Part shown: positions 1,336 through 32,669 of the stretch, piece after piece
Layout of the letters: each line of letters begins with the position of its first letter
How positions within the stretch are numbered: the first letter of the stretch is position 1
Assembly (NCBI GenBank): GCA_937952315.1
Contig: CALFZX010000016.1
Span: 78,969 to 142,968, forward strand
DNA: 64,000 bases
DNA from: an uncultured bacterium
Lineage (GTDB): Bacteria > Patescibacteriota > Minisyncoccia > CAIUEV01
Direction: 5' to 3'
Position numbers and translations under genes: made by a program
The notes under the pieces: generated by a model
Told to the model about the DNA's origin: nothing
Database searches by the model: none
The model's input: the letters and a program-made list of their open reading frames with translations, nothing else

Positions 1336-2526
1336 TTATCCGACCCAATACCAATTAAAGGATTGGAGGGCGAAAATACTTAAAAATAAAATGGAAATTA
1401 AGCTGATCAGCCAACCGATCAGCGGTTTTTTGCGACTTAAAATTCCCAGCAGTATAAAATGAGGAAACGAAACGGACAAATATCTGGTTAACGACATAGT
1501 CTGGCCGGAGAGCTGAGGCAGAAGAATAATGGCCAAAGAGTAAAAAAAATAAGAAACTCTAATTTTAGAGTAACAAGCAATGAGTGAAAGTAGAAATATA
1601 AGCCCGAAAAGAAAATCAATTTTTGAATTGTGAAAACCGTGTAGGGGGAGATCCCAAAAGCGGTAGAAACGATCACTCAGCAAGTGGATAAAGTTGACCG
1701 GGCTTATGCTATCTCTGCCCCACCATTCGAGCGCCTCAAAATAGGCGAAAAAATTTCCGGTGATGAAAAAAAGAAAAAGAAAATAAGCAAAAGTGCCGAG
1801 AGGAGCGCCGATTGGCGTGATCAGGGTTCGATAATTTTTCTTTAAAAAAATCTTCCAATCCTTAAAACCGAACTCTCTAAAAAACATTAAATATTCTATG
1901 ACGAAGGGTATGGCGAGTAAAATACCATTTGGTCGACATATCCCTCCCAGAAAAGCGACAATAAAGGCAAACCACCATTTTCTTTTTCTTAAAAAATAGA
2001 ACATTGTTACTGACAGTAAAAAAAACAGACTTTCCGTGTAGACGGCTAAGAAAAAGAAGGCGGTCGGGTAGATGAGAAAAAATTTCACTGATTCAAAGGC
2101 GGTTTTACTGTCCCAATCGAGTCTAACGAGGCGGTAGAAAATCAGGGTTCCGGCTAAATGGGCAAAGAAGCTGATCAACAGTCCGGCTATCGTGTAGTCT
2201 CTACCGGTGTAAAAGGAAAAAATACTTATCAGGGCGGGGTAGAGGGGGAAGAACGCGCGTACTTTTTCGTCGAAATAGCCCATATTTTCGTAGCCGAAAT
2301 AGGCCAAGTTTAGATAATGGGGGCTGTCGTAAGGGGAAAGACCTTTTTCCCATTTCTCCTGGTTCTGTCCAAGAAAATGATCGCTATTGTTCTCGTAGTC
2401 CCATTGGCTGAAGGGTAGAAAATCGTAGCAACAAAGAATAAATAACAACAAAATCAGTTTAAACCCAAGAAACAAGAAAATAACGGATCCGCTTTTATTT
2501 TTACGCATAAGATTTTGATTAAACAT
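1336..2526 (-). CDS. Polytopic integral membrane protein, possibly a GT-C-type glycosyltransferase.
   Basis: 396-aa ORF with 10 or more hydrophobic segments. It abuts mutM with zero gap and is co-oriented with dnaG-mutM. No diagnostic catalytic motif could be confirmed by eye. Confidence 0.45.
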   Translation of the reverse strand: MFNQNLMRKNKSGSVIFLFLGFKLILLLFILCCYDFLPFSQWDYENNSDHFLGQNQEKWEKGLSPYDSPHYLNLAYFGYENMGYFDEKVRAFFPLYPALISIFSFYTGRDYTIAGLLISFFAHLAGTLIFYRLVRLDWDSKTAFESVKFFLIYPTAFFFLAVYTESLFFLLSVTMFYFLRKRKWWFAFIVAFLGGICRPNGILLAIPFVIEYLMFFREFGFKDWKIFLKKNYRTLITPIGAPLGTFAYFLFLFFITGNFFAYFEALEWWGRDSISPVNFIHLLSDRFYRFWDLPLHGFHNSKIDFLFGLIFLLSLIACYSKIRVSYFFYSLAIILLPQLSGQTMSLTRYLSVSFPHFILLGILSRKKPLIGWLISLISILFLSIFALQSFNWYWVG

Positions 2527-3423
2527 TCATTTTTGGCAACGAGGACAGTAGAAAGTAGATCTTTGCCCCTGCTTAAAAGCACTTATAATCTCTCCGCAAT
2601 TGGGGCATTTTTCCCCTTTGCGTTGATAAACTTTTCGAAATCGGCCGAATTCGCCCCTAAGGCCGTCGGTGTCGCGAAAATCACTGATGCTGGTCCCTCG
2701 GTGCTTGATTGCTTCTGTTAAAACTGCTCGGGTTTTGGATAGAATTTTCTGCAACTCCGCTTCGGTTAGTTTGGAGACTTTTTTCCGAGGATTGATTTTG
2801 GCCTCAAAAAGGATTTCGCTGGCGTAAATATTGCCAATACCACTAATGTTTTCCTGATCGAGAAGAAAAACCTTGACTTCCTTGTTTATGTTTTTTTTCT
2901 TTTTAGTACTTTCTATCAATTTTTCAAGATTAAAATCCGGTCCCATTGGCTCCGGACCGAGTTTTTTGTATTCTGTCCGCTCGAGCGTTTCGTCAATCCC
3001 GCAATCGTAGAAGCGGATTCGACCGAATTTACGAAGATCTGAGAAAGCCAGTTCTTTTTTAGGGCCAAAAAGAAAACGAAAATGGATATATTGATTGACT
3101 TTTTCTCTGAAAGGCCTTTTTGCGTCTTCTTTAACAATTTTGCTTGCTTCAAGGTCGAAATAATTGGTAGAACGCCAGAGTAAATGCCCCGTCATTTTAA
3201 GATGAATCACTACGGTGATGTCGGTTTCTAATTCAATAAAAATATTCTTGCCTCTTCTGGCTACTCGACCGACTTTTTTCCCGATTACGGCTCGACGGAA
3301 TTTTTTCAGTTCAATATTTTTAAGTATTTTTGGCCAATCGGTCCAAACGCCTGTAATTTTTTTGTTGACAATTTTTTTTTGCAAATCGGAAACAACGGTT
3401 TCCACTTCGGGCAGTTCCGGCAT
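2527..3423 (-). CDS. mutM: Formamidopyrimidine-DNA glycosylase (Fpg/MutM).
   Basis: N-terminus MPELPEVE has the catalytic Pro2 and Glu3. The C-terminal zinc finger is CPNCGEIISAFKQGQRSTFYCPRCQ. The length of 298 aa fits. Confidence 0.9.
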   Translation of the reverse strand: MPELPEVETVVSDLQKKIVNKKITGVWTDWPKILKNIELKKFRRAVIGKKVGRVARRGKNIFIELETDITVVIHLKMTGHLLWRSTNYFDLEASKIVKEDAKRPFREKVNQYIHFRFLFGPKKELAFSDLRKFGRIRFYDCGIDETLERTEYKKLGPEPMGPDFNLEKLIESTKKKKNINKEVKVFLLDQENISGIGNIYASEILFEAKINPRKKVSKLTEAELQKILSKTRAVLTEAIKHRGTSISDFRDTDGLRGEFGRFRKVYQRKGEKCPNCGEIISAFKQGQRSTFYCPRCQK

Positions 3424-3428
3424 ATCTT

Positions 3429-5240
3429 TTAAGTTACTATTTTAGAGGAAACGATTTTAAGCTGTTCAAAAAGTTTATTTAATTCCGTCTGATCATTTTT
3501 TGCTTGAGCCTTTTTTATTTCTTTTAAGATCTCGTTTTTTCTTTGAAGAAGCATTTCTCGACCTAGCAACTTTAAATTAGCATCAAATTCCTTTTCGAGC
3601 GTCTCCGGGTTATCAAAAAAATCTTCTCCCAGCTCATTTTCCAAGGTCAGGAAAATTTCTTTAGCCTTCAGAGAAGAAGCTCGATCGGAAAAAATTATGG
3701 CATCGCTTGTTAAATTTACTCCCTCGCTTTCCGTGAAGCCGGAAAGAAAAATTTTAATTTCCTCAAGCAGGCGAGCGTGCTCCGGATTTTCAAAATCAAG
3801 ACTTTCTATTTTTTCAAAATGAGAAAAGAAAAGGCGAGGAAAAGCGTAAATAAAGCCAATAATTCTTTTTTCCAACAGGTCCTGACGATTTTGTTTCGGG
3901 GAATTCGAAATATTTTCATCCTTTTTTTGCCAGCGATTATTGTATTTTTCCTTTTCCATAATGCGATTTATTTTCTCCCAAAGATGATTTTCCGGCACAT
4001 CGACCTCCTCGGCCAGTTTTTTTAAGTAGTGGGATTGCTCAACCGTTGAGGGGATGCCGGCTATCAATTTTAACAATTTTTCAGTTAAAATTTTTTTCTG
4101 ATCCAGGGTGAGTTTCCTATTTTTAAAGGAAAGATCGTAGAAATAGCCGACGACGCTTTTTCTTTGACGACTTTTCTTAATCCAAATATCCGCTTTTTTA
4201 GCGACCAAGTCAGCAACATCTTTTCCTTTTTCAATGGCGATAACCTTAACATCGAATTCCTCTTTCCAGGCGAGTTCCGCCGCCCTTTTCGTTGCTTTAA
4301 CGCCGGCCATATCGGCATCAAAGGCCAGGATTATTTTATCAATGTATCTTCTCAAAAATTTAAGCTGTTTTTCTCCGAGAGCGGTGCCACAGGTAGCTAC
4401 CGCTTGCTTTATTCCCGCTTGATGGCTCAAAACTACATCCAGGTTACCTTCTAACAAGATTACTTCGCTCGATTCCCGGATAGCTTTTTTCGCTTGAAAA
4501 AAACCGTATAACAAGGAGCCCTTATCGTAATGCTCCGTTTGAGGAGTGTTTATGTATTTACCTTGATCACTCTGGTCGCCTGGTAACACTCGAGCGGAAA
4601 ATCCGACTATCCGACCGAGACTATCGGTAATTGGAAAGATTAAACGATTACGAAAGCGATCGATATAGATATTTTGATTGTCCTTTTTATAAACGCTTCC
4701 GCTGGCGAGAATTTCCTTTTCGGTGAAACCGTTCTGCTTAAGAAAATCAAAAAGGGCGGTGAAAGTGTTGGGAGCATAGCCTAAACGAAAAATTTTGCGA
4801 CTTTCATTGTTCACTCCTCGATCAGCAAGATATTTCATTGCCGTTTCTCCTTCTTTTTCTAATAATTTTTGTTCAAAAAAAGAGGCGGTTTTTTCCAATA
4901 TTTGTCGAACTATTTCTCTTTGGCTAACATCTTTGGGGTTGAAACCGGCTTTTTGCCAAATCCGATAGTCTATTCCCGCTTTCTCCGCCAAAATTTTTAA
5001 TGCCTCTTTGAACTCCAGCCCTTCAATCTCTTGCATAAAGGTTATTACATCTCCTCCTTTAGAACAGCCGAAACAGTGAAATATTTGCTTCTCCCGACTT
5101 ACCATAAAAGAAGGCGTTTTCTCTCGATGAAAAGGACAAAGCCCCTTAAAATTACTGCCGGCCGGCATTATTTTAACATATCCGCCGATTACTTCGACAA
5201 TATCGTTTTTCGCTTTTATTTCGTCGATCAGAGAGCCCAT
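3429..5240 (-). CDS. dnaG: DNA primase DnaG.
   Basis: CHC2 zinc finger CPFHREKTPSF...HCFGCSKGGDVITF. A TOPRIM region (EGNLDVVLSHQAG...AFDADMAG) follows. Length 603 aa. Confidence 0.9.
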   Translation of the reverse strand: MGSLIDEIKAKNDIVEVIGGYVKIMPAGSNFKGLCPFHREKTPSFMVSREKQIFHCFGCSKGGDVITFMQEIEGLEFKEALKILAEKAGIDYRIWQKAGFNPKDVSQREIVRQILEKTASFFEQKLLEKEGETAMKYLADRGVNNESRKIFRLGYAPNTFTALFDFLKQNGFTEKEILASGSVYKKDNQNIYIDRFRNRLIFPITDSLGRIVGFSARVLPGDQSDQGKYINTPQTEHYDKGSLLYGFFQAKKAIRESSEVILLEGNLDVVLSHQAGIKQAVATCGTALGEKQLKFLRRYIDKIILAFDADMAGVKATKRAAELAWKEEFDVKVIAIEKGKDVADLVAKKADIWIKKSRQRKSVVGYFYDLSFKNRKLTLDQKKILTEKLLKLIAGIPSTVEQSHYLKKLAEEVDVPENHLWEKINRIMEKEKYNNRWQKKDENISNSPKQNRQDLLEKRIIGFIYAFPRLFFSHFEKIESLDFENPEHARLLEEIKIFLSGFTESEGVNLTSDAIIFSDRASSLKAKEIFLTLENELGEDFFDNPETLEKEFDANLKLLGREMLLQRKNEILKEIKKAQAKNDQTELNKLFEQLKIVSSKIVT

Positions 5241-5319
5241 TTCAAAGCTTTAATTAAAGTTAGAGTAGTTTCTCCTATTTATATCCTTTCTTATCTTTGT
5301 TGTAAAATGAAAAATAATT

Positions 5320-5346
5320 TTGGCACTCAAACTTGACGAGTGCTAA
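5320..5346. promoter_or_regulatory. CIRCE operator (HrcA binding site) upstream of groEL.
   Basis: TTGGCACTC-aaacttgac-GAGTGCTAA matches the CIRCE consensus TTAGCACTC-N9-GAGTGCTAA at 17 of 18 positions. It sits 56 nt upstream of the groEL ATG. Confidence 0.85.
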
Positions 5347-5362
5347 AATTATTGTATCATAA

Positions 5363-7045
<1,683 letters not shown>

Positions 7046-8246: not shown

Positions 8247-8585
8247 TTAATTGAATCTCAAAATCATAAATTTTTCATTTTTGTAACGATTGATTATTGC
8301 TTCTTGCTTTTTTCTGTCATCGGTGTAGAAAGCCCCGCATTGTGTGTTTCGACAAATATCCGGTCGGTTGGCATAATCAAGACAAAGGCCATTTTTTGAA
8401 TCAAAATTTAGACAACGAAAAGTTCGCAAACGAACCGCGTCAGGGTTGCTCTCCGGAATATAAATCTCTCCCGTTTCCACGAAGGGCCGACCGATTTTTT
8501 CCAGTTCGAGCAATGCATAGCCTCTGATTTTAACCGGACTGCAACAATCGCTACATTTGTGTTCTAGACAAACATTTTTTTCCAT
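8247..8585 (-). CDS. Small Cys-rich protein, YkgJ/UPF0153-like zinc/iron-chelating domain.
   Basis: A C-x4-C-x2-CC cluster (CLEHKCSDCC) near the N-terminus, with further Cys at 58, 68, 78 and 83. A canonical AGGAGG Shine-Dalgarno site lies 5 nt upstream, which is rare in this window. Confidence 0.4.
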   Translation of the reverse strand: MEKNVCLEHKCSDCCSPVKIRGYALLELEKIGRPFVETGEIYIPESNPDAVRLRTFRCLNFDSKNGLCLDYANRPDICRNTQCGAFYTDDRKKQEAIINRYKNEKFMILRFN

Positions 8586-8741: not shown

Positions 8742-9527
8742 ATGAATTTAGTTGAAAAACTAAAAAAAATGCCGATCAGAAGATTCGATTTTGATTATGA
8801 TTGGTATAAAGAGAACAAAAATTCGGGATTCCGAATGGCCAGAAGAATTTTTGTTCAAAAATTTCATCCAAAATGTCGAGAGGGGCTGATCAGCTGTTCC
8901 TCCCTGGGAATCATGAGTTTGAACTATTACAGTGAGGGACGCGGACGAAAAATTATTCACAATTCCGGTCGAAACAAAAAGAACGGTCTGGCTTTTGAAG
9001 ACAATGTTTTTTTGAGACAGAGCCTGGCTTTCGATCTCAAACTTATAGACTACCGGCTCAAACCTTTCGGTCTTAGACTTTTTATTTTAAGCGGATATCG
9101 AGATATTCGTTTGCAAAGACTGGCGATTGAAGGTTTGTCAAAGCAAAAAAGAAGAAAAAATGCCAGGCCGGTAACCGAGTTACTTTCTAATCCGGAGAAT
9201 TACTCTCCTCACACAACCGGTGGCGCAATCGATTGTGAGATTTGGGATGAAAAGAAGAAAAAATTACTTCTCACCAAGCTGGACGATAGAGAAAAAATAG
9301 ATCTTTTTTGGCTTGAAGATAAAAAGAATTTGAGTCAAAAAGAGGAAGAAGTCAAATTAAATCGTCGATTGTTGCATAATATTTTGGTTAGTGAGGAAAT
9401 TTTGGGTCAAAACCATTTTATCCATCACCCTTCCGAATACTGGCATTACGGTCGGCATGAAAGATTGGCCTCTTTTTTCTCGGGAGGTGGCCATCCTGCT
9501 TATTACGATGTGTTGAATCTTGATTGA
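8742..9527 (+). CDS. D-Ala-D-Ala dipeptidase, VanX/DdpX family (peptidase M15D).
   Basis: Motifs SGYRD, SPHTTGGAIDCEI (the SxHxxGxAxD zinc ligands) and EYWHY (the ExWH motif). An AGGAGG Shine-Dalgarno site lies 6 nt upstream. Confidence 0.7.
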   Translation: MNLVEKLKKMPIRRFDFDYDWYKENKNSGFRMARRIFVQKFHPKCREGLISCSSLGIMSLNYYSEGRGRKIIHNSGRNKKNGLAFEDNVFLRQSLAFDLKLIDYRLKPFGLRLFILSGYRDIRLQRLAIEGLSKQKRRKNARPVTELLSNPENYSPHTTGGAIDCEIWDEKKKKLLLTKLDDREKIDLFWLEDKKNLSQKEEEVKLNRRLLHNILVSEEILGQNHFIHHPSEYWHYGRHERLASFFSGGGHPAYYDVLNLD

Positions 9528-9632: not shown

Positions 9633-10028
9633 ATGGTCTCTCTATTTAAAAAAAATTTTCGTTATTTACGATCAAGCCTTAATTTTGCCGTTAGAGGGAT
9701 AAAATACGCGTGGAAAACGGAGCAGAATTTTCGTTGGGAGCTTTTTGTCGCCGTTTTAGTTATTTTTTGCTCCGTCGCTTTGCCCCTGAGACCGATTGAA
9801 CAGTTGCTTGTCTGGTTGTTGGTAGTTTGGGTTCTGACGCTCGAAATAATCAATACCGTGCTGGAAAGAATGATCGATATCATCAAGCCTAAAAAGCATC
9901 CCTATGTTGGAGCAATAAAGGATTTAATGGCTGGTGCGGTGCTTGTCTCGGCCGTCGGTTCCGCTATCATCGGAATGATTCTTTTTTTTCCCTATTTTGA
10001 AAATTTGATTTTATCTATTATAAATTAG
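9633..10028 (+). CDS. Diacylglycerol/undecaprenol kinase family membrane protein (DgkA-like).
   Basis: 131 aa with 3 TM segments. The LEIINTVLE motif matches the DgkA E-x-x-N-T-A-x-E signature. Confidence 0.65.
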   Translation: MVSLFKKNFRYLRSSLNFAVRGIKYAWKTEQNFRWELFVAVLVIFCSVALPLRPIEQLLVWLLVVWVLTLEIINTVLERMIDIIKPKKHPYVGAIKDLMAGAVLVSAVGSAIIGMILFFPYFENLILSIIN

Positions 10029-11788: not shown

Positions 11789-12928
11789 TTATTGTCTTTT
11801 ACATTTACCACCGGTGAAATTCTCTCCCGGCGGGCATTTGCACAAGCTACCGTCTTTAGTCCAATGACCTCCGGAATCTTCACACTTGGAGCGGGTTGTC
11901 ACCCCGCTATTATTTTTTTTGACAGGAGTGGAAGTCACCGGTTTTGTGGTTTTCGGTTGAGGAGCCGGTTCGTCTTCTTTTTTCACGGCAGAGCTTGTGG
12001 CTGTTTGATTATTAGTGTTTTCATTTTTTTCCGCTCCTACGGAAATAGATTCTTGATTGTCGAGATTGACATTTTGATTCTCGTTTTTAGTGTTGATATT
12101 GCTGTTTCCTTCTGGATTGGAATTTTCGTTAGCGGGATTGGCGTCTATCGGAGGAGTATCGGCAACTTCTACGGGTTCGGCCGGCTTATCTTCGGAGGAA
12201 GAAAAAGAATCCCTGAGAGGAGAAGTGAAATCTTTCTCTTCAAAAGCTACCACTTTTTTTTCTAACGGATTGATAATAATTTTTTCGTTCTCCCCCGCCT
12301 CTTGAGAACTCTTATCTTTATAGTTAACTTTCACCTTTCCTTTAAAAACATAAATCGTGCTATCTTTCTCCTCTACTTTAACAACTAAATCGGTTCCCAG
12401 GACGGAGATCTCGCCATCGCTTAAAATTATTTTAAAAGCTTTTCTTTTATCATTCTTTTCAACTAAATAGCGGACTTCTCCATCGGTTTGGGACCAAGAA
12501 ATTTCCCCTTGATTTTTAAGGAGAATCAGTCGGGCGAAATTACCCATAGTTATTGTGCTACCGTCATTGGAACTTATCTTAGCCTTTCCGTCGGCCAAAG
12601 TTCTCATTTCATAAGCGATTTTTCCTTCCAAGGGCAGTTTTTCCGGCTCCATCCATGAATTTTGGCTACTGTCTCTATACTCAAGCCCTCCCTCTTTTTC
12701 GGTAACTTTTACAGGGTATTCTTCCCCCAGAGAACTAAAATAAAAGCTAAGACCGAATCCGCCGGCGGCTAAAATAATCAAATACAAAAACCAACGAAGT
12801 GACTTTCGTTGATTCAAGGCCGTACGATTGTTGGTCTGATTTGGATAAGAATAGGGGCTATAAGCGTTAATCATTTTTAAGCTTTTAGAAAAAAATATAA
12901 AGCAATTAAGATTTTCCGCTTGTATCAA
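11789..12928 (-). CDS. Membrane-anchored protein with a FecR-like beta domain and a Cys-rich C-terminus.
   Basis: One TM helix after about 45 cytoplasmic residues. FecR-like strands (EISVLGTDLVVKVEEKDSTIYVFKGKVKV). A low-complexity N/E/Q-rich linker, and 4 Cys in the last 35 aa. Confidence 0.4.
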   Translation of the reverse strand: MIQAENLNCFIFFSKSLKMINAYSPYSYPNQTNNRTALNQRKSLRWFLYLIILAAGGFGLSFYFSSLGEEYPVKVTEKEGGLEYRDSSQNSWMEPEKLPLEGKIAYEMRTLADGKAKISSNDGSTITMGNFARLILLKNQGEISWSQTDGEVRYLVEKNDKRKAFKIILSDGEISVLGTDLVVKVEEKDSTIYVFKGKVKVNYKDKSSQEAGENEKIIINPLEKKVVAFEEKDFTSPLRDSFSSSEDKPAEPVEVADTPPIDANPANENSNPEGNSNINTKNENQNVNLDNQESISVGAEKNENTNNQTATSSAVKKEDEPAPQPKTTKPVTSTPVKKNNSGVTTRSKCEDSGGHWTKDGSLCKCPPGENFTGGKCKRQ

Positions 12929-13316
12929 GAGTCTCTGCCAAATTTTCTATTTCCGAAGCCGATAAGCCTTTTTTGACTACCATGACTAGATCGTCCTTTG
13001 AATTCTTTGAAATCTGAGCATTCTTGGGAAAAATTTTCTCAAGCCTTCTCCAAATATAAAGCTTGGGCTTAGAAAGATAAAGTAATACGCTACCGCAAAA
13101 AGCTACCAAGCTTTGGTTGTAGGGACGAACAAAAGCAAAAGACGCGGAAATCCCCATGATTATAATTCCGACAAAAACAAAAACCTGAAATTCGATCAGC
13201 TTCCAAAGAAGCAAGCAAATCCCTCCCCCACCGCCAAGCCAGCCAAGTTGCTTGACGGTAAGGGGGCCAACTATTCTATCTTCAATATCGACATCTTTGG
13301 GAACTTTGAATCTCAT
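12906..13316 (-). CDS. PrgI-family protein (Gram-positive conjugation/T4SS VirB3-like component).
   Basis: N-terminus MRFKVPKDVDIEDRIVGPLTVKQLGWLGGGG followed by two TM helices matches the PrgI-family signature (KVPxDV...IxGPLTxKQ). 136 aa. Confidence 0.55.
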   Translation of the reverse strand: MRFKVPKDVDIEDRIVGPLTVKQLGWLGGGGGICLLLWKLIEFQVFVFVGIIIMGISASFAFVRPYNQSLVAFCGSVLLYLSKPKLYIWRRLEKIFPKNAQISKNSKDDLVMVVKKGLSASEIENLAETLDTSGKS

Positions 13317-13368: not shown

Positions 13369-14043
13369 CTACTGTTGAGGCTTGTTCTCTTCAGGGGCTT
13401 TGCCACTAGCTTGTTCCTGCTTGTATCTGGTTATGGCATCTGTTACTTTTGAATCGTTTTTAAGATCCTCGACAAAAACCACCTGATCTTTGTTGATCAT
13501 CATTCTGTCTTCCGGACCGTGGAGTTCATTGCCAAGCTTGACTAAGGAAAGCTCGGTTTTTTGTTCTTGCTGTTTAGCAGTGTTCGTGTTATCGTTATCG
13601 TTTCCTTCCGATTGTTGCAAAACCGGTTTAACTTGTAGGTAGTAGATGTCGGAGAGTCCAATGTAAGAAGGGTCATGAAAATCAATTCTACCGAAGTAGA
13701 CTTGACCGTTTGTTAAAAAAACAGCTTGATATTTTGCTGGGTCTATCTTCATTGAATCGTTGCCCGATCCGCCGGTGACAATCTTTTCTCTTTCGATTAT
13801 TCTTTCGCCACCAACTCCGTTCGTCCCCTTCATTTCTTTAACAATCATGAAGACGATACCGGCTACGACGGCCAAACCGATCAAAATTACCAAGCCCCAA
13901 AGAACGCCTTTTTTACCTTCACCGTTGGATCGAGAGCTTCTTCTGGGGGCAACATCCCAATCGTCATCTTCTCTCGGACGACGACTTTCTCCAGTTCTTT
14001 CCAGAAAGGAGTCAATCTTATGATCTTTTTCTTCGTTTCTCAT
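13369..14043 (-). CDS. Hypothetical single-pass membrane protein.
   Basis: The ORF track gives 13369..14145, but the likely start is the MRNEEKD Met at 14043, which avoids overlap with the upstream gene. TM helix VLWGLVILIGLAVVAGIVFMIV, followed by an extracytoplasmic domain. Confidence 0.4.
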   Translation of the reverse strand: MRNEEKDHKIDSFLERTGESRRPREDDDWDVAPRRSSRSNGEGKKGVLWGLVILIGLAVVAGIVFMIVKEMKGTNGVGGERIIEREKIVTGGSGNDSMKIDPAKYQAVFLTNGQVYFGRIDFHDPSYIGLSDIYYLQVKPVLQQSEGNDNDNTNTAKQQEQKTELSLVKLGNELHGPEDRMMINKDQVVFVEDLKNDSKVTDAITRYKQEQASGKAPEENKPQQ

Positions 14044-14129
14044 TTTTTTTGATTTTTTAATTATTAAAAATGAAAGAACTCTGATAAACATTTTAAGCGA
14101 TTTTTTTGAAAAACAAAATTTAGCTAATT

Positions 14130-14717
14130 TTATTCGATACAACAATCTATAGCTTTTCTTAGCAGTTCTCTTAATTTCAATTTAAATCCGACCGGTTTTT
14201 TATCGTGTTTATTTAGAGCCGAGGCGGGAATTTTTTTTATGGCAGTACCTTTTTGGGTATTTTCCGCCATTGTTTTCTTAATGTCATTTGTGCCGATGAG
14301 TTTCATATTTAAAGCCCAGAACATTCCGTAAAGATCGTAAGCCTTATGAAAAAGATCTCTCGCATCTTCTTTATTCCCCATCCCTTGCTGTTTGGTGCCT
14401 ACTTCCATCAAGCGCATGGAGGCGGCTAAAAGATGCTTAGAAATACACCAAACTTCACCTTCGTATTCTTTAATGATTTTTTTGAGCAATTCGCCTCTCA
14501 TTTTTCTAACTTCCTGCAATAAATCAAAATATTCGTCTTTGCCGGTTTTTTCAGCGGTAAAAAAGAAATGCTCCTCAATGCTGATTAGATTCATGATTGC
14601 AATACTCAAATCTTGATCGGAAGAAAGATCCATTTTATCTTTTTTCTTCATCTCGTCTATTCTTTCGACAAATTTATTTAAGTTCTCGATCGGTCCCTTT
14701 TTTATATTTTCATTCAT
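14130..14717 (-). CDS. Hypothetical cytoplasmic protein.
   Basis: 195-aa ORF, helical and charged, with no recognised motif. Confidence 0.35.
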   Translation of the reverse strand: MNENIKKGPIENLNKFVERIDEMKKKDKMDLSSDQDLSIAIMNLISIEEHFFFTAEKTGKDEYFDLLQEVRKMRGELLKKIIKEYEGEVWCISKHLLAASMRLMEVGTKQQGMGNKEDARDLFHKAYDLYGMFWALNMKLIGTNDIKKTMAENTQKGTAIKKIPASALNKHDKKPVGFKLKLRELLRKAIDCCIE

Positions 14718-16133: not shown

Positions 16134-16221
16134 ATCAAAAATATTTTAGTTCTTTAAAAGCTGGCAATAGGATAGCAAAAAGATAAAAATGTGGCAAAAA
16201 ATCAAAAAATACCAAAATCAC

Positions 16222-16250
16222 TTGACTTTTCTGTAATCTTTCCATAATGT
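16222..16250 (+). promoter_or_regulatory. Sigma-70-like promoter for the Ivy-like gene.
   Basis: TTGACT (16222-16227), a 17-nt spacer, then TAATGT (16245-16250). A GGAGA Shine-Dalgarno site lies before the ATG at 16302. Confidence 0.45.
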
Positions 16251-16301
16251 TTAGCGTTCAAGTACTTTGCAAAATCTATATCAAGGAAGGAGAATGCTAT
16301 C

Positions 16302-16775
16302 ATGATTAAAACATTTTTTGTGCCTCTGCTTATCGGTTTGGCGTTGAGCAATGTTTTCGGCGCCGGTCCGGAGACGATTCCGATGGACGGACTAAAAACA
16401 TTTTCGGCCCAGGCCGCCTATCGCGAGTATCTCCAAAGCCTCAATGAGACTTACGGAGAATATAATCATGAAACTCTAAAAAGGCACCCCGAGATAACGG
16501 ATTCTATTCTGAGGGTCAAGCCGGATTTTAAGAAAAAGGACATCGCCACGGCTTTCCCCAATGTTTTTTTTAAAACGAAGGATGGCCGAATGCTGCTGAT
16601 TTTGAGAGGATGTACGCCGCACGATTGTGCCGGCACCGTCCATATCATCGCCTATGACACTCTCGCTCGAAAAGCCTATGTTCTGAGGGAGAAGTATGAT
16701 CGCGAGGCAGTGCAAATTTATGGCACTCCCGATCAGACAGTCAGGCAGGTTATGATCAATGTTTATCTGGAATAG
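16302..16775 (+). CDS. Secreted Ivy-like protein (inhibitor of vertebrate lysozyme family).
   Basis: 157 aa with a signal peptide (MIKTFFVPLLIGLALSNVFGA). The RGCTPHDCAG loop matches the conserved CKPHDC lysozyme-inserting loop of Ivy proteins. GC content is visibly higher than in the flanks. Confidence 0.5.
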   Translation: MIKTFFVPLLIGLALSNVFGAGPETIPMDGLKTFSAQAAYREYLQSLNETYGEYNHETLKRHPEITDSILRVKPDFKKKDIATAFPNVFFKTKDGRMLLILRGCTPHDCAGTVHIIAYDTLARKAYVLREKYDREAVQIYGTPDQTVRQVMINVYLE

Positions 16776-16800
16776 TCGGCCATTTTCTCCCAAACAACAA

Positions 16801-16830
16801 AAGACTCCCTTGAACCAGGAGTCTTTTTAA
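16801..16830 (+). terminator. Rho-independent terminator after the Ivy-like gene.
   Basis: Stem AAGACTCC (16801-16808), loop cttgaacca, stem GGAGTCTT (16818-16825), then TTTTAAAT. Confidence 0.6.
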
Positions 16831-16833
16831 ATC

Positions 16834-16909
16834 TGGTCGGGATGCCGGGACTCGAACCCGGAGTCTCACGAACCCGAATCGTGCGCCTTACCAATTAGGC
16901 CACACCCCG
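16834..16909 (-). tRNA. tRNA-Pro (anticodon CGG).
   Basis: Hand-folded cloverleaf: acceptor CGGGGTG/CATCCCG, D-stem GCCT/AGGC, anticodon stem CACGA/TCGTG with loop TTCGGGT, T-arm CCGGG-TTCGAGT-CCCGG, and an encoded CCA end. Confidence 0.8.
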
Positions 16910-17162
16910 AGATAATTTTCAATTTTCAAACAGTGATTAATTTATTAATGTCTCAATTTTTCAAAAAAAATCAGATATTGATTCGTGTTTGAAAATTAAA
17001 AAATTAAATCATTGAAAATTGTTTAGAAATTAGAAATTGAAAATTAAAAATTATATTCCTCCACCAGCTTATTAAAGACTAAATAAAACAAAACCGTCAA
17101 CTCTACCCTCACTATCTTTCATCTTTCATCTTTCAACTTTTAATTTTTTAACTGTTCTCTCT

Positions 17163-18989
17163 CTACCAACTTCCCCCTCCGCCGCCTCCGAAACCGCCGC
17201 CGGAAAATCCGCCGCCTCCGAAACCGCTCCCGCCGCCGGCAGAGACTCCGCCCTCGTTTTTTGTTCCCATCGCCAGGTTTGTAACTTCGGAGAAGGCGCT
17301 GAGTGAATTAACAAAGTAAAGCGCATTAAAAGTGTTGAGATTACCTGATCCTTCATACCAAGAAGGATTTTGATTGTAGATTCCTTCAAATTGTTTGGCC
17401 CAGGCTCTTTCGACTCCTAAAATCATAGCGTAGGGGAGAAGTTTTTCAAATAATTCCGGTCTTTTGGTTGGAGCATTATGAAAATTAATGCGATCTTTCT
17501 CCGCCACTTCCAGATATTCTTTCAGCCCGAGAATTTTTTCTTTGGCGTTGACGCCTTTAAGGGTTTTCTTTGGCATAAAATAGCCAAAAATAATGACTAA
17601 AAGACCGGTTAAAATAATACTGCCGGCGCCAATTAGACCGAAAGCGTTGCCGGCAAAAATAAAGCCGACAATGGCGATAACCAAACCGATTAGAAAATAA
17701 GTGCTTCTAACTTTGTGAGGATTGCGCGGAAAGTAACCTTTGCTAACGAGACCGGTATACGCCAAGTCTCGAAAATTGTTTATTTTTTGAGGAAAAACAT
17801 TTTGAAGCTGTTCTAGAGTGACGGCCGATTGGGCACCAAGACCGAGAATAGTCGCATAAATTTCTCTTTCGACGCCGGCCGGAAGATCATTTTGTTTAAG
17901 AAAAAATATTTGATAATTCGGTCGATTTTTGAAAATACCAAAGAGGGGCTTTTTCTCGATCTCTCGAATTCTAAGATACCCCTTAACTGCCAAATTGATG
18001 ATTGAAGAAGAAAAATCTCTGGGATCGGCCTTTTCGTCGATGAGAGTACCGACTTCAACAGGACTGAGATTGTCCGGTGGCCCATAAAAAGGAATAATTG
18101 TTTCTTTGCCCCTGGGATCTCTGCCTTTAAGAAACCAAAGAATAAGCAAAAAAACGGCGGTTGTTAAGGGAAGAGCGAGAAATCCGTAATAAATTAGATT
18201 ATATTTCAGTATCAGCCAAAAACTTTGACTTAAATTCGGTTTTTCGATGAGACCGTGAGGCAGACCGGTGATAATACTCAGTCCGTTATTTTTGGGCAAT
18301 GACCATTTAGAATTAAAATGAACTTTATTTTTACCCGTAGCTTCAAAAAGACATTCTTCTTCCGTTGATCCGAGAACGCCGGTGAAGCAACCGAAGGCCC
18401 ATTGGGAAGTGTCAATTTCTGCGGGAAATATAACGGTGGCTTCCGCTTTTTCGATGGAAACGCCCCAACCATTGCCCGTAACATTCCAGAAGAATTCATC
18501 TCTTTTCTCGTTGCCCGCCGGTTGATAAGCGATTACATTTTGAACGGAATACTTTAATCGATAAATGCGTTTCCCTTCGACTGTTGATTCTTCTCGGCCG
18601 AGTCGAATATTTTTATTGTTTGATTCGGTTGTTAAATTATAAGGAACTTCGTTCCAGCTTTGACCATCTTGTGATTCTTCCGCGGAAATTAATTTAAAAT
18701 TAACTTTGTAGGCGGTTTTTTTATTTGGAGATTTTTCAACTTCGTATTTATACGGTAAGTATCTGATAATTCCGTGTTTCGGCTGAGGAAAAAAGTAGCT
18801 TATCTCTTCCGTAACTAGAACTTCACTGTTGGATTGGATAACAATCTCCGATTTGAAGTGCTCAATTTTTTCTTCATTTTCAGCCAAAGTAGATTGTAAG
18901 CAGAAAAAAAATCCAAATAAGCCGGTAACAAAGAAAATAACAAAATTTCGTGGTCTTATCTTCACTGTTAGAGATTTAAAAATAATCAA
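17163..18989 (-). CDS. DUF2207-type membrane protein with a C-terminal Gly-rich tail.
   Basis: A signal/TM segment, a large extracellular domain, TM helices at about 255-280 and 430-470, and the tail GGGSGFGGGGFSGGGFGGGGGGSW, which is typical of the DUF2207 family. Confidence 0.55.
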   Translation of the reverse strand: MIIFKSLTVKIRPRNFVIFFVTGLFGFFFCLQSTLAENEEKIEHFKSEIVIQSNSEVLVTEEISYFFPQPKHGIIRYLPYKYEVEKSPNKKTAYKVNFKLISAEESQDGQSWNEVPYNLTTESNNKNIRLGREESTVEGKRIYRLKYSVQNVIAYQPAGNEKRDEFFWNVTGNGWGVSIEKAEATVIFPAEIDTSQWAFGCFTGVLGSTEEECLFEATGKNKVHFNSKWSLPKNNGLSIITGLPHGLIEKPNLSQSFWLILKYNLIYYGFLALPLTTAVFLLILWFLKGRDPRGKETIIPFYGPPDNLSPVEVGTLIDEKADPRDFSSSIINLAVKGYLRIREIEKKPLFGIFKNRPNYQIFFLKQNDLPAGVEREIYATILGLGAQSAVTLEQLQNVFPQKINNFRDLAYTGLVSKGYFPRNPHKVRSTYFLIGLVIAIVGFIFAGNAFGLIGAGSIILTGLLVIIFGYFMPKKTLKGVNAKEKILGLKEYLEVAEKDRINFHNAPTKRPELFEKLLPYAMILGVERAWAKQFEGIYNQNPSWYEGSGNLNTFNALYFVNSLSAFSEVTNLAMGTKNEGGVSAGGGSGFGGGGFSGGGFGGGGGGSW

Positions 18990-25005: not shown

Positions 25006-25836
25006 TTACCAGACAATCTCTTCTTCATTCTTCACCTCTCGTTGTTTTGTGCTATCCGTTTCTTGGTTTTTAATAAAATTTTGAGAGTCAAAAAGGTTGC
25101 TGGTAACATAAAAAGAAGGAACCCCGCCTTTTTCGAAGGAATGAGTCCAGAAAATTCGAAAATCCCTTGTTTGGCCGGCTAAAATTGAATTGACGGTAGT
25201 TTGATTAATGGCAATAATGGCCTGATTTACATCTTTGACGATTGAAAAAATCTCAACCGTTTTTAGGTCGAAGGGGCTTCGGTTAATGATGCGACCTCTA
25301 ACCTCGGCGAATTCGTAAGGGCTATCAAGATAATTCAGCTTAAAGTCAGAAATTTGAAGATCCGGCTTGGTGAAACTTCTGAAAAAACTCCATTCTTTGG
25401 CGTCGCCAATTTTAAGTTCCGGCACAAAATCATCTTGACAAACTAAATTGTATTCGGCAAGGTATCTTTCTTCCCCAGGATAAATATAAAATTCATCTTT
25501 TTTTATTGTTTTGTCTCCCCAACTGAAACTGTATGGAATTTTTTGTCCGGCCAAGCTATTGTTGGGATTGTTTATAACAGCGACTAAGTCACATTTATTG
25601 TTGCCTCCCCTGATAATTTCGAAACTTTTGGTTACAATTTTGTCCGCTTTTGGCGTTTCGGTTTTGCAAGCCTTTTCACAGGCAGTTCCGCAATCAACGC
25701 CTTCTTCTTCTCCATTTTTGATACCGTCGAAACAAGTCGGATCGGTTTTTAGAAGACGGTTGATGAGAAAAACCGAGCTTCCGATCAGCAGAAGGACTGT
25801 GAGCACTATAATTATTTGTTTTACGCTCCTTTTCAT
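25006..25836 (-). CDS. Hypothetical secreted or membrane-anchored protein.
   Basis: An N-terminal TM/signal segment (IIIVLTVLLLIGSSVFLI) followed by a Cys-containing extracellular domain. No recognised motif. Confidence 0.4.
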   Translation of the reverse strand: MKRSVKQIIIVLTVLLLIGSSVFLINRLLKTDPTCFDGIKNGEEEGVDCGTACEKACKTETPKADKIVTKSFEIIRGGNNKCDLVAVINNPNNSLAGQKIPYSFSWGDKTIKKDEFYIYPGEERYLAEYNLVCQDDFVPELKIGDAKEWSFFRSFTKPDLQISDFKLNYLDSPYEFAEVRGRIINRSPFDLKTVEIFSIVKDVNQAIIAINQTTVNSILAGQTRDFRIFWTHSFEKGGVPSFYVTSNLFDSQNFIKNQETDSTKQREVKNEEEIVW

Positions 25837-25974
25837 TTTTTTATTTTATTTATTTCTAATTCTTTTTATAATGATCCAAAAAGCGGTAATTGGAAGCCAC
25901 AAAAAAGTTGTCTTTTTCAAGACGAATTCTGACCAAACTTCGATTTTTGCTTTGTCCCTGGCCATTTCAATAAA

Positions 25975-26532
25975 TTAAAATTTCAAATAGCGAGCCACCC
26001 GATCGCTGAAACTTTCCTCTTGCTCTTCTTCTCGCAAAAAACTAACTAGCATTTTCCGAATTTTTATAGGATCTTCATCGCCAAAAGGAATATGTATGTG
26101 CGGAAGATAGGCTTTTTTGTGTTTTAGGCTGATAACTTTGAACTCTGGCGGTTCGAAAAAAATCCAAAAAGAATTCAAATCCTTGTAAGGGTAAGTAAAT
26201 TTATCGACAGAAATTCCTCGATTGCCAATGCTGCAAGTAATTTTTCGCGGTTTTTTGATGGAGAACATATAAACGGTTATACCGAGCAGAATAAAGGTTA
26301 TTGAGGTAATAATTTGTTTTGAAATAACAAAGTATCCGACCAAAACAAAAAATAAAAGACCGCCCACCACAAACCAAAGTTTAGATTTATGATAATAATT
26401 GAATTCGTCCGTCTCCCAGCTCATCAGAACATTTTGTTCGCCGATCGGCGAAAAGACGGCTTGGTTTTCGGCCAAATCGTTTTTTACTTCCCCCTTCGAA
26501 TCGCCAGTTTTTTTTCTCAAATCTAAAATCAT
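25975..26532 (-). CDS. Hypothetical membrane protein, translationally coupled to the hydrogenase gene.
   Basis: 185 aa with two central TM helices. Its start at 26532 abuts the hydA stop at 26533. Confidence 0.4.
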   Translation of the reverse strand: MILDLRKKTGDSKGEVKNDLAENQAVFSPIGEQNVLMSWETDEFNYYHKSKLWFVVGGLLFFVLVGYFVISKQIITSITFILLGITVYMFSIKKPRKITCSIGNRGISVDKFTYPYKDLNSFWIFFEPPEFKVISLKHKKAYLPHIHIPFGDEDPIKIRKMLVSFLREEEQEESFSDRVARYLKF

Positions 26533-28350: not shown

Positions 28351-29073
28351 TTAAGGCACTATTGTTTTCTCCGCTTCTTCGCTTTCATCCGACTCCTCTT
28401 CGAGTAAAGCTTCTTCTTCCTCAAGGGAGTCCAGCTCCTCCTCTGTCATCTTCTCTTCAGAATCAACCATTTCCGCCAGATAGTCTATTTTTGTCCATTT
28501 ATCATTAGTTTCATTGTAGCCGTATTCTTCGTAATAATAATCGAAAAATTTATCTTCTCCGCTGATCAGTTGCCAATCCTCCTCGCCCTCTTTATATTTA
28601 GCTAACTCTTTAAGTTTCGGTGCGTCACCGGAAAAATCTTCCACTTGATAGAGTGCTTTCATCCCACCAATTTCCGACTCGCTAGGAAAAATTTCCAAAT
28701 AAACAAAAGTGTTGCCAACAAAAGAAATGCCGGCGCTTGATATATCCCACTTATCATTTTTTGGCGGGAAAATCAATGTGTCCAGATTCTTTATTAAATA
28801 AGCGATTACCTTTTGTCTTTTATTTTCATCGGGTAATTCGTCAAGTTTTTTTTCTTCCTCCAGCGGTTCGGTGTCCTCTATCTCCACTTCTTCCGCATCG
28901 GCCTTGGATTGATCGGCCTGATTTTCCGACGGTGTTTGAAGCGATGGATTCTCTTGGTCTATCGGTTTATCTTGATTTTTATTTTTTACAGAATAGCCGA
29001 GCATTGCGAGACCGATGATCAAAACCGAAGCGCCGACCGACCAATAGATTTTTGAATTTTTAATTTTTTGCAT
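28351..29073 (-). CDS. Hypothetical membrane-anchored acidic protein.
   Basis: An N-terminal TM segment, a central domain, and a highly acidic E/D-rich C-terminus. Confidence 0.4.
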   Translation of the reverse strand: MQKIKNSKIYWSVGASVLIIGLAMLGYSVKNKNQDKPIDQENPSLQTPSENQADQSKADAEEVEIEDTEPLEEEKKLDELPDENKRQKVIAYLIKNLDTLIFPPKNDKWDISSAGISFVGNTFVYLEIFPSESEIGGMKALYQVEDFSGDAPKLKELAKYKEGEEDWQLISGEDKFFDYYYEEYGYNETNDKWTKIDYLAEMVDSEEKMTEEELDSLEEEEALLEEESDESEEAEKTIVP

Positions 29074-29100
29074 AATCTTATTTTAATTCTTATTTAAAAA

Positions 29101-30879
29101 CTAATCGAATTGTCTTTCCACCTCGTCTCTTTTTTTTCGTAAAAAATCGATCCAAGCTTCAAAAGCTCTGATAATAAATTTAAACGGGGCCTCTACCAAG
29201 AAATCTAAAATGAAAATAAAGACATTGATACGAGAAAACTTGACAGAAAGAAGACGACCAATGCGGACGAACGGCAGGAGAGCGGTATCGAAAATAAGAC
29301 TGAAAATACCTTCTTTATCCTTTGTGACTACCAAATCACGAGTTGATTGTCTGATTAAGGCGCCAAAAAAACTGACCGTACCGGTAAAAATAAGGAAGAT
29401 TAGGGTGGCGACAATGTTAAAATTCAAATAGCCGAGCAATTTTATCAGAAGATAAAGCACTGTAAAGAGCACTGTGATGTAAAATAAATCAAGCATCCTT
29501 TCCGCCCAAGCGCTCTCTCGGTCGGAGATATTTATCGTTTTTAGCTCCTCTTCCAGCTTTGCTCGATAAACGAGAGTGCTGACGCCTTTTAAAATTTCTT
29601 TGGTGTTTTCTTCGTCCGGTTTTCGGGCGGAAGAGGCGATCAAGCTTAGTAAGATCGGTGGAAAAAAGAGATTGATTGCAAGTGATTTGTATTCTATTGA
29701 TTTTGCTTTGAGCATCATTTCGTAGGGGACTTCCAAGAGTATGGCTACTATCATTTTCGTTAAAAAAACATAGAGAATCCCGCGACCGATTCTTTTTTTC
29801 AGTTTTTTGCTTTCCGCCAAGTAACGCAAATTGCATTTGTTTTTAACTTTATCCCAGAGCAGGTATTCTTGAAGGGTAACGGCGCGCGCCTCGGCCGGAT
29901 TGTCCATCACGGCTTCGTAGAAAAAAGCGGAGCAGAGCATATATTTTTTAATCGGGAAAAGAATTTTTGGCATCAAAGGATGCTCGGCGATAACTTCCAT
30001 TTCAAATCTCTTTCTTTTTAACAATTTTATGGCTTCTAAAATTTCATTTTCATTTTGTTCTTTCAGGCTGGTCCATTTGGGAAAATAAATATTGAAAACC
30101 AAGAACCTGATCATGGCGCGATCCGATTTTCGCAGATTACGGAAAACGGCCAAGTAAATTAGCAGATTTAGCAGTTTTTTTTCATCGAAAAAACAATTTT
30201 TTTGAGAAGCTTTTTTCTGCTCTCCCATTATAGAATTTTCAATCGGTTCGACTAGTGATCCAACGCCCAAATATTCTTCCGCTAAATTTTGAACCCCCTT
30301 GATTTTTGAGCCCGGTAGAGGGAACGGAGGACGACTTAAGTTGAACTTGATTTTTGGTCTTAAAGTCTCATAAATAGCATAAATTAGGGCCATTTTTTCT
30401 TTCTGAGGATTGATTTGGTTCTCGATCTCCTCAGAGGCTAAGGAAAAAAACCACCGTCTAATTTTTAAATTTTCAGTGGCACTTTTTATTCGGCTGTTAA
30501 TAATTTGCAAAGCTTTGAGGTATCGAGCGATTATGTTTTCTACTTTTTCAAACAGCTCGTCATTGGCGTCAGACTGATTGATGTGTCCGGCCATAACTAA
30601 TTCTTTGAAAAGCGCATAAGCCAGATCTCGTTTGGTTTTTCTTTGTTCGATGTCCACCAGTCTTTTTAGGATGCGATAAATGGTGGTTCTACGAAGTAAG
30701 TGCTCCTCTTTGTATTGGACGGCACTTCTAACTTTTTCATACCATAAAGCCATTTGACCGGCAATTTCAGAAGTTTCCATTCTAAAAATGGTCTGCCTGG
30801 AGGTATTTTTCTCTTGAGCCGTCTTTTCCACGACTTCAAGAAAATATTCAACGGAAGGATTAATAATTTCTTTTGTCAT
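29101..30879 (-). CDS. Large hypothetical protein: a cytoplasmic N-terminal domain of about 440 aa plus a C-terminal multi-TM region.
   Basis: 592-aa ORF with no recognisable catalytic motif. Four or more hydrophobic helices in the last 150 aa. Confidence 0.4.
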   Translation of the reverse strand: MTKEIINPSVEYFLEVVEKTAQEKNTSRQTIFRMETSEIAGQMALWYEKVRSAVQYKEEHLLRRTTIYRILKRLVDIEQRKTKRDLAYALFKELVMAGHINQSDANDELFEKVENIIARYLKALQIINSRIKSATENLKIRRWFFSLASEEIENQINPQKEKMALIYAIYETLRPKIKFNLSRPPFPLPGSKIKGVQNLAEEYLGVGSLVEPIENSIMGEQKKASQKNCFFDEKKLLNLLIYLAVFRNLRKSDRAMIRFLVFNIYFPKWTSLKEQNENEILEAIKLLKRKRFEMEVIAEHPLMPKILFPIKKYMLCSAFFYEAVMDNPAEARAVTLQEYLLWDKVKNKCNLRYLAESKKLKKRIGRGILYVFLTKMIVAILLEVPYEMMLKAKSIEYKSLAINLFFPPILLSLIASSARKPDEENTKEILKGVSTLVYRAKLEEELKTINISDRESAWAERMLDLFYITVLFTVLYLLIKLLGYLNFNIVATLIFLIFTGTVSFFGALIRQSTRDLVVTKDKEGIFSLIFDTALLPFVRIGRLLSVKFSRINVFIFILDFLVEAPFKFIIRAFEAWIDFLRKKRDEVERQFD

Positions 30880-31741: not shown

Positions 31742-31767
31742 TTAAGCTGAATTAAAGTATTATTTTT

Positions 31768-32319: not shown

Positions 32320-32346
32320 TTGTTTTTTTAAATGTTTTTAAAAATT

Positions 32347-32640: not shown

Positions 32641-32669
32641 TTAAATTTTTTCTATTTATTTCGCTAAAA

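Follow-up and report, generated by a model that had tools for sequence, protein, structure and literature searches.

Ivy proteins (Pfam family PF08816) are small exported inhibitors of lysozyme, with solved structures for Ivyp1/PA3902 of Pseudomonas aeruginosa (PDB 1UUZ and 4PS6) and Ivy/YkfE of Escherichia coli (PDB 1GPQ and 1XS0). In PDB 1GPQ the loop of the E. coli protein plugs the active site of hen lysozyme. According to published accounts, Ivy carries a Cys-Lys-Pro-His-Asp-Cys (CKPHDC) motif and inhibits lytic transglycosylases (PMC3660660, PMC10139938), acts on c-type lysozymes with nanomolar potency and is described as limited to a few proteobacterial species (PMC2267010). The inhibitors PliC/MliC, PliI and PliG (PMC2267010) are likewise small exported or anchored proteins that insert a loop into the lysozyme active site. 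A further Ivy-like domain, in Hypo_04657 of E. coli O121, was recognised by structure prediction rather than by annotation, and a role against phage lysozyme has been proposed for it (bioRxiv 10.1101/2024.04.20.590424). A fundamental question is what does Ivy inhibit in the living cell? Its physiological target is disputed, with animal lysozyme and the bacterium's own lytic transglycosylases as the two candidates. Here we describe a gene for a 157-residue protein that is, by profile and model comparison, a remote yet genuine member of the Ivy superfamily with the functional loop kept. The gene lies on a stretch of 64,000 nucleotides, hereafter the window, from an uncultured bacterium of the Patescibacteriota (contig CALFZX010000016.1, positions 78,969 to 142,968). 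The window is taken to be part of a Patescibacteria chromosome from its housekeeping genes, its T4SS-pilin and PrgI genes, the scarcity of Shine-Dalgarno sites at its starts and its syntenic relatives.

How does this protein compare with the described systems? Like E. coli Ivy, which is also 157 residues long, it is small and predicted to be exported. It shares with Ivy the fold by model comparison, homology at the level of profiles, a Cys-x-Pro-His-Asp-Cys loop that likewise follows the second strand and a similar C-terminal YG.P...R.LL helix, for which the Pseudomonas protein is nearest. It differs in the Thr that replaces Lys in the loop, in its low sequence identity, in an N-terminal segment of its own and in a Pfam score below threshold. 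Moreover, the genomes that encode it are labelled Patescibacteria, bacteria believed to have neither an outer membrane nor, in consequence, a periplasm. In many members of its subfamily the N-terminus is a membrane anchor with a linker, or has a lipobox, in place of a short signal peptide. As with Hypo_04657, it was structure prediction and not annotation that revealed the Ivy-like domain; that protein has CKANTC in the loop, has lost Pro-His-Asp and carries a C-terminal helical membrane domain, whereas the protein described here keeps Pro-His-Asp and consists of a single domain. PliC/MliC, PliI and PliG would resemble it in their mode of action by analogy, and membrane-anchored MliC parallels the anchored members of the Ivy-like subfamily, but their folds and sequences are unrelated and the protein has no match to those families. 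The fold, the loop and the automatic Pfam matches to some members were already known; what is new is the divergent subfamily member.

A remote member of the Ivy superfamily

The coding sequence and the parts of the protein that matter for the comparison are as follows.

16302 to 16775, + strand: coding sequence of the 157-residue Ivy-superfamily protein, ATG start, stop codon included
16302 to 16364, + strand: predicted Sec signal peptide, residues 1-21 (MIKTFFVPLLIGLALSNVFGA), from a hydrophobicity heuristic and inspection
16605 to 16634, + strand: loop RGCTPHDCAG, residues 102-111, predicted counterpart of the Ivy CKPHDC inhibitory loop, from alignment and model

The open reading frame (ORF) is a real gene under strong purifying selection. 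Database protein P0001 is 100% identical to its product, orthologs are found at 85, 81, 68 and 66% identity, and comparison of the orthologs gives a ratio of nonsynonymous to synonymous divergence (dN/dS) of about 0.07-0.11, with dS ranging from about 1 up to saturation. The N-terminus is signal-like, with a Lys-containing n-region, a hydrophobic core (Kyte-Doolittle maximum 2.13 in a 15-residue window) and a c-region of small residues. Cleavage would fall near FG-A/G, and the FGA motif is invariant across five close orthologs. The signal peptide was called from Kyte-Doolittle hydrophobicity and by eye; judged by this heuristic only, the N-terminal Lys, the hydrophobic core and VFGA would provide the export signal expected of an Ivy protein. 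An earlier reading of the window from its letters, here the original prediction, had described a 157-residue protein with a signal peptide and the loop RGCTPHDCAG, and all of these elements were found.

The original prediction had also called the protein Ivy-like, and this claim holds as remote homology. A search of the single protein against Pfam by hidden Markov model (HMM) returned Ivy as the best match, at 16.8 bits against a gathering threshold of 21 and an expectation value (E) of 0.0079. The same family was the top match for all five close orthologs, each below threshold (best E 0.006), and it is precomputed in the database for P0002 and P0003, an entry marked 'faint'; a search of NCBIfam gave no match. 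In the wider family, represented by an alignment of 57 sequences, 33 members match PF08816 at E of 0.01 or less, with a best E of 3.6e-7. Among PDB sequences, the best phmmer match of the single protein was P. aeruginosa Ivy (E about 0.08), with CTPHDC placed on CKPHDC. When the 57-sequence profile was run against all PDB sequences with hmmsearch, the sole significant matches were four Ivy sequences, 4ps6 and 1uuz (E 2.9e-7 and 3.4e-7) and 1gpq and 1xs0 (E 3e-4 each). The profile-Ivy alignment spans the region from the strand before the loop through the C-terminal YG.P....R.LL helix, and identity to the solved Ivy proteins is about 11-18%. Alignment of the family with E. coli Ivy, taken from the K-12 genome, by hhalign gave a probability of 95.5% and E of 1.3e-8.

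A profile built from the five close orthologs lost the Ivy matches in the PDB and matched repeats of Parkia lectins instead. This spurious match of the N-terminal EYL.SL..TYGEY segment was rejected as a coincidence between short motifs, and it was gone with the 57-sequence profile.

Predicted fold and conservation of the loop

An AlphaFold2 model calculated from the 57-sequence alignment has a mean predicted local distance difference test (pLDDT) score of 91.9, rising to 97 around the loop, and a predicted template modelling (pTM) score of 0.84. Its strands cover residues 88-91, 97-105, 114-119, 124-130 and 136-140, and a C-terminal helix covers residues 145-156. A Foldseek search of the PDB with this model returned high-probability matches (0.96-1.00) only to Ivy chains (4ps6, 1uuz, 1gpq), with template modelling (TM) scores of 0.58-0.65 on the target, and all non-Ivy matches fell below a probability of 0.2. 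Four of the five Ivy chains superpose with a root-mean-square deviation of 3.6-3.7 Å over about 115 columns, and 4ps6 with 5.3 Å over 139. An earlier, shallower AlphaFold model led to the same top Ivy matches. The model predicts that the protein has the Ivy fold, a five-stranded antiparallel sheet packed by helices.

In the model the motif occupies the end of strand 97-105 and the loop that follows it, which is the structural position of CKPHDC in Ivy, and phmmer, hhalign and hmmsearch all align CTPHDC column for column with CKPHDC of the P. aeruginosa and E. coli proteins. Cys104 and Cys109 flank Pro106-His107-Asp108. Conservation among the 57 aligned members is highest for Gly103 (57/57), Cys104 (55/57) and Cys109 (54/57), followed by Asp or Asn at position 108 (47/57) and by Pro106 and His107 (40/57 each).

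A divergent subfamily with N-terminal hydrophobic segments

An exhaustive profile search yielded 105 family representatives at the 50% identity level, 57 of which make up the alignment used above. Their loop consensus is G-C-T-P-H-[D/N]-C-G-G-T. A strongly conserved N-terminal segment, YGEY..ETL...P.I.D.I.K.KPDFK..D..T.FP, is unaligned to Ivy in sequence and profile comparisons. A hydrophobic segment at the N-terminus is present in 80/109 family representatives; in many members it looks like an uncleaved membrane anchor, with a linker of low complexity behind it, and a lipobox is present in a few. These segments are consistent with an extracytoplasmic role across the family.

Where does the subfamily occur? 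A scan of a genome collection, based on 17 aligned sequences and the narrow pattern GCTPH[DN]C[GA]G, found at least four loci, labelled Patescibacteria, Saccharibacteria, Gracilibacteria or 'uncultured bacterium', a lower bound that is no proof of lineage restriction. Some family representatives have N-termini of the high-GC type and probably belong to other phyla. As judged from these comparisons, the gene belongs to a divergent Ivy subfamily whose closest members lie in genomes labelled Patescibacteria. No publication linking lysozyme inhibitors and Patescibacteria was found in the literature searched.

The Ivy-like domain also forms the C-terminal part of long proteins of 541-1058 residues (P0068, P0085, P0092, P0098, P0105), and the N-termini of P0068 and P0085 look kinase-like by eye. 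A DUF333 domain is present in two members of the alignment.

A predicted self-contained transcription unit

The gene is flanked by predicted signals of its own, listed here with the block that is shared by three related genomes (L001, L002 and L007).

16222 to 16250, + strand: predicted sigma-70-type promoter, with -35 TTGACT at 16222-16227, a 17-nt spacer and -10 TAATGT at 16245-16250, from sequence and conservation
16251 to 16267, + strand: invariant block TTAGCGTTCAAGTAC(+2) directly 3' of the -10 box, predicted transcription start and early leader, from conservation
Window 16221-16267, L001 about 9935-9980, L002 about 2490-2535, L007 about 5930-5975: conserved promoter/leader block
16287 to 16292, + strand: Shine-Dalgarno site AAGGAG, 9 nt 5' of the ATG, from sequence and orthologs
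16799 to 16827, no strand assigned: hairpin terminator with a 10-bp stem (AAAAGACTCC/GGAGTCTTTT), a 9-nt loop, an A-tract 5' and a T-tract 3', from fold energy and conservation

The promoter had been called near-consensus. The boxes and their spacing are present, but 'near-consensus' overstates the match, since the -35 box agrees with the consensus at five of six positions and the -10 box at only three (T1, A2, T6), and a consensus promoter scanner gave no call for TTGACT-17-TAATGT. The window, L001, L002 and L007 share the -35 box, the spacing and TA[A/C]TGT, and this conservation over four genomes is better evidence for a candidate promoter than the consensus match itself. A gene for RpoD lies within the window at 34391-35659. 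Directly downstream of the -10 box, positions 16251-16267 are identical in the four genomes despite near-saturated synonymous sites, and the tightly conserved promoter/leader block is the most unexpected item at the locus. The promoter together with approximately 17 nt past the -10 box (CTTGACTTTT ... TA[A/C]TGTTTAGCGTTCAAGTAC) is nearly invariant in all four. The promoter is bracketed by a 6-bp inverted repeat, one arm of which (ACTTGA) overlaps the -35 box and the other (TCAAGT) follows the -10 box, and for this reason the repeat may mark an operator. No conserved RNA fold was found in the leader of the gene, and block 16251-16267 has no second copy in the window beyond chance.

The Shine-Dalgarno site is one of three in the window that match at least 6 nt at the first start, among 62 ORFs of at least 100 residues, and its rarity had been correctly noted. 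Other ORFs of the window have A/T-rich leaders in place of such sites, and purine-rich GGAG or GGGG is retained at the corresponding position of the orthologs. The three ORFs with strong sites lie at 8247-8585 (-), 8742-9527 (+) and 16302-16775 (+); they encode a CxxCxxCC protein, a VanY-like D-Ala-D-Ala carboxypeptidase and the Ivy-like protein, and two of the three are cell-wall related. The terminator had been described with a perfect 8-bp stem. The stem is indeed perfect and is 10 bp long here (16799-16808 with 16818-16827), with a folding energy of -11.9 kcal/mol (z -3.2 against shuffles) and a T run after it; across the four genomes the stem is invariant and the loop variable. Because it lies between convergent genes, the terminator probably serves both the Ivy-like gene and tRNA-Pro. 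With a conserved promoter, a Shine-Dalgarno site and a terminator, the gene is predicted to be a self-contained transcription unit.

A resident gene beside tRNA-Pro

The original prediction regarded the gene as a candidate horizontal acquisition, from its GC content and its position beside a tRNA gene. The GC content of the gene is 0.470 against an ORF mean of 0.407 in the window (rank 2/62, z 2.1), and its GC content at third codon positions (GC3), 0.532, is the highest of the 62 (z 3.1; binomial p 0.0012 before correction for 62 genes). The visual contrast with the flanks, noted in the original prediction, is partly exaggerated because the intergenic flanks are AT-rich (GC 0.286 and 0.225) and the tRNA gene is GC-rich (0.632). 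When GC3 is conditioned on the amino-acid sequence, the gene has a z of 2.92, beside 2.80 for GroEL, and three other genes exceed 2.3. The codon-usage log-likelihood, calculated analytically over the 62 ORFs, gives a z of -1.95 and makes the gene the sixth most atypical. Its composition is at the upper edge of the window distribution and within the range. The proposed comparison of GC and codon usage with neighbouring genes singled out the gene by GC3 but not by codon usage, and the offset recurs in all orthologs: the GC excess over the local mean is about 0.01-0.04 in all compared genomes (about 0.04 in L001 and L007), and the GC3 excess is about 0.06 above the local mean in each, at local GC from 0.37 to 0.42. 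An offset that stays constant across genomes of differing GC means that the gene has tracked each genome, and it has the marks of a gene-specific bias in a resident gene rather than those of unameliorated foreign DNA.

The features of the chromosomal site are as follows.

16834 to 16909, - strand: tRNA-Pro (anticodon CGG), convergent with the gene, 3' end facing the gene, from ARAGORN and Rfam
Window 16134-16221, L001 5840-9925, L007 about 1800-5900, L002 844-2400: variable slot upstream of the Ivy-like promoter
Window 16910-17162, L007 about 6610-6790, L002 3161-3373: intergenic region between tRNA-Pro and the DUF2207 gene

The gene does end shortly before tRNA-Pro, as had been stated, with a gap of 58 nt rather than 59 between its stop codon and the tRNA. 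The module of promoter, gene, terminator and tRNA-Pro is found at the same place in three related genomes (L001, L002/L008 and L007), with orthologs 66-85% identical. The three ortholog loci (85%, 68% and 66% identity) are on contigs of other assemblies, and tRNA-Pro(CGG) is next to the gene in each. Downstream, L001 and L002 continue as the window does, with genes for a DUF2207 protein, a beta-propeller protein, CorA, a MiaB-like radical S-adenosylmethionine enzyme and ribosomal proteins L15, S5 and L18; for L007 the downstream comparison covers ORF sizes only. On the left, the neighbour of the gene in the window is aspS, with a divergent promoter.

Between the aspS promoter and the Ivy-like promoter lies the variable slot, which is empty in the window. 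In L001 it is occupied by a copper cassette of roughly 4 kb, which encodes a metal-sensing repressor, an HMA-DsbD_2-cupredoxin protein and a P-type ATPase of the CopA type; the breakpoints of the cassette fall exactly between two conserved promoter blocks, as expected of a clean insertion or deletion. In L007 the slot holds two ORFs whose sizes match the L001 cassette, identified by size only, and in L002 it holds glutaredoxin and thioredoxin-reductase-like genes. If anything at this locus is mobile, it is the slot cassettes rather than the Ivy-like gene.

Could the gene nonetheless be a recent arrival that integrated beside tRNA-Pro? Its GC3 and GC ranks, its strong Shine-Dalgarno site where the genome seldom has such sites, its position at the 3' side of a tRNA gene and the difference among related genomes in the segment just past it would all fit such an island. 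Against this stand the orthologs in three genomes, which share the promoter, the terminator, tRNA-Pro and the neighbours on the right, the constant offset in GC and GC3, a codon usage of only sixth rank and a conditional GC3 close to that of GroEL. Moreover, a 25-nt 3' part of tRNA-Pro occurs once in the 64 kb with 3 mismatches allowed, which leaves no att-like repeat; no long direct repeats were found flanking the gene; and the annotated parts of the window contain no integrase, transposase or phage gene. The synonymous divergence of the orthologs, from about 1 up to saturation, indicates that the gene has long been at this site. We consider recent acquisition very improbable, and the claim of a horizontal transfer at tRNA-Pro is not upheld: the comparison of relatives points to a long-standing resident, vertically inherited with tRNA-Pro and the downstream housekeeping genes, and tRNA-Pro is a conserved neighbour rather than an integration scar. 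An ancient transfer between phyla is conceivable. As a general lesson, a tRNA next door, slightly raised GC and a self-contained layout do not suffice to call horizontal transfer.

The intergenic region beyond tRNA-Pro is unalignable between relatives, unlike the DNA upstream of the Ivy-like gene. It has a GC of 0.225 and short A/T direct and inverted repeats (GAAAATTAAAAA; tandem AAAGTTTATAAAGTT in L007), and its length ranges from about 80 to about 250 nt among relatives. The adjoining DUF2207 protein has a glycine-rich tail (GGGSGFGGGGFSGGGFGGGGGGSW) encoded by GCC/GCG repeats (direct-repeat family D1, window 17163-17260, -).

Proposed function and alternative explanations

What would such a protein do? 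The best explanation, to which we assign a probability of roughly 60%, is a small exported Ivy-superfamily protein, vertically inherited, whose loop blocks a lysozyme-fold peptidoglycan glycosidase. After export, Cys104 and Cys109 would form a disulfide that stiffens the loop, and the loop, with His107 at its tip, would plug the active-site cleft of the glycosidase, which could be a c-type-like lysozyme or a lytic transglycosylase. The envelope of Patescibacteria contains peptidoglycan and is believed to have no outer membrane, which would leave the wall directly exposed, and cultivated members spend their lives attached to other microbial cells. At or in this wall the inhibitor may counter muramidases that come from partner cells, competitors, grazers or phages; alternatively it may restrain the cell's own wall-cutting enzymes. 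The enzyme inhibited would more probably be a microbial one than the lysozyme of vertebrates, because the sample names of relatives suggest environmental sources and because Ivy has been reported to act on lytic transglycosylases too, weakly in E. coli. The strong Shine-Dalgarno site, the GroEL-like GC3-rich codons and the tightly conserved promoter block suggest high, possibly regulated expression.

Several observations weigh against an inhibitor of this kind. The single protein misses the curated threshold of PF08816, so that the search for an Ivy match, in which Ivy did come out on top, gave less than a formal family assignment; identity to the solved proteins is low, and the Lys of the canonical loop is replaced by Thr. 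Since His107 is kept in only 40/57 members, not all of them need share a target. The literature searched holds no biochemical data for any subfamily member, and one study found lytic transglycosylases to be inhibited only weakly by E. coli Ivy (PMC10139938). Canonical Ivy is a periplasmic protein of Gram-negative bacteria, whereas here a soluble secreted form would have to be retained by a cell with no outer membrane to hold it; many of the relatives seem to be anchored in the membrane instead. No partner muramidase or peptidoglycan hydrolase was found beside the gene, its orthologs or two distant homologs, and with no adjacent gene for a partner enzyme the protein is not part of a toxin-immunity pair.

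These points bear on two other readings of the protein. An Ivy fold might serve something other than glycosidase inhibition, as an extracytoplasmic chaperone or binding protein or as a paralog-type member with another loop partner, and we hold this to be a real but clearly less probable option. That the homology is remote (identity of about 11-18%, TM of about 0.6), that the single sequence stays under the Pfam threshold and that no muramidase gene lies nearby would be as expected, and in RefSeq E. coli Ivy also bears the name 'periplasmic chaperone'. The conserved N-terminal segment, which lies outside the stretch alignable by sequence or profile, points the same way, but Foldseek superposes about 111-139 columns, the greater part of the Ivy chain. 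What speaks for inhibition is that the most conserved part of the family is the Ivy inhibitory loop, with Gly103, Cys104 and Cys109 nearly invariant, and that the sole known function of this loop is insertion into the active site of lysozyme-type enzymes. A secreted metal-binding or thiol-redox protein, using Cys-x-x-His-x-Cys and tied to copper resistance, would account for the copper cassette directly upstream and in the same orientation in L001 (the L007 ORFs match by size only) and for the glutaredoxin and thioredoxin-reductase-like genes upstream in L002, and Cys and His are typical copper ligands. However, the cassette is missing from the window, and in each of the genomes the gene has retained a promoter of its own; the L001 cassette is a clean insertion or deletion between conserved promoter blocks, so its adjacency is explained by the variable slot. 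Two distant homologs sit among ThrRS/MiaA or ClpP/RpiB/PurF genes, and the protein has no matches to known copper chaperone families. In the solved Ivy proteins (PDB 1GPQ and 1UUZ) the two cysteines form a structural disulfide, which also counts against a metal or redox role, and we regard such a role as very improbable.

The glycosidase-inhibitor reading can be carried further, to the subfamily as a whole. The GCTPH[D/N]CGGT proteins might constitute a lineage-wide, vertically inherited surface defence of ultrasmall bacteria that have no outer membrane, in which secreted or membrane-tethered Ivy-type inhibitors, expressed under control of the conserved promoter and operator block, protect the exposed wall from muramidases met in episymbiotic contact, and these muramidases would be the autolysins of the partner or the attack enzymes of the cell itself. 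This extension is tentative, and we think it possible rather than probable.

Other features of the window

Three tandem paralogs with a T4SS_pilin domain stand beside a thioredoxin gene just downstream of rpoD, and the window also holds a PrgI-like gene and a type IV pilin with an N-methylation motif.

31385-33017 (-), 33930-34382 (-) and 12906-13316 (-): pilin and PrgI-like genes
13369-14717 (-), 25006-26532 (-), 28351-30879 (-) and 43944-44801 (+): sizeable ORFs (185-592 residues) without any Pfam match

Of the ORFs without a Pfam match, the two located between aspS and the PrgI-like gene have conserved counterparts in L001.

Implications for Ivy and for Patescibacteria

A conserved Ivy relative that looks strongly expressed, in environmental ultrasmall bacteria, offers a cleaner test of the 'bacterial muramidase' hypothesis for Ivy, because the wall of these cells is exposed and it is to other microbes, not to vertebrates, that they attach. 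The gene is, besides, a candidate factor for envelope protection in a lineage about whose surface biology next to nothing is known. If the subfamily does act as a surface defence, lysozyme inhibition would be extended from the Gram-negative periplasm to cells of the monoderm type, and it would have a role in symbiosis between bacteria rather than in evasion of animal immunity.

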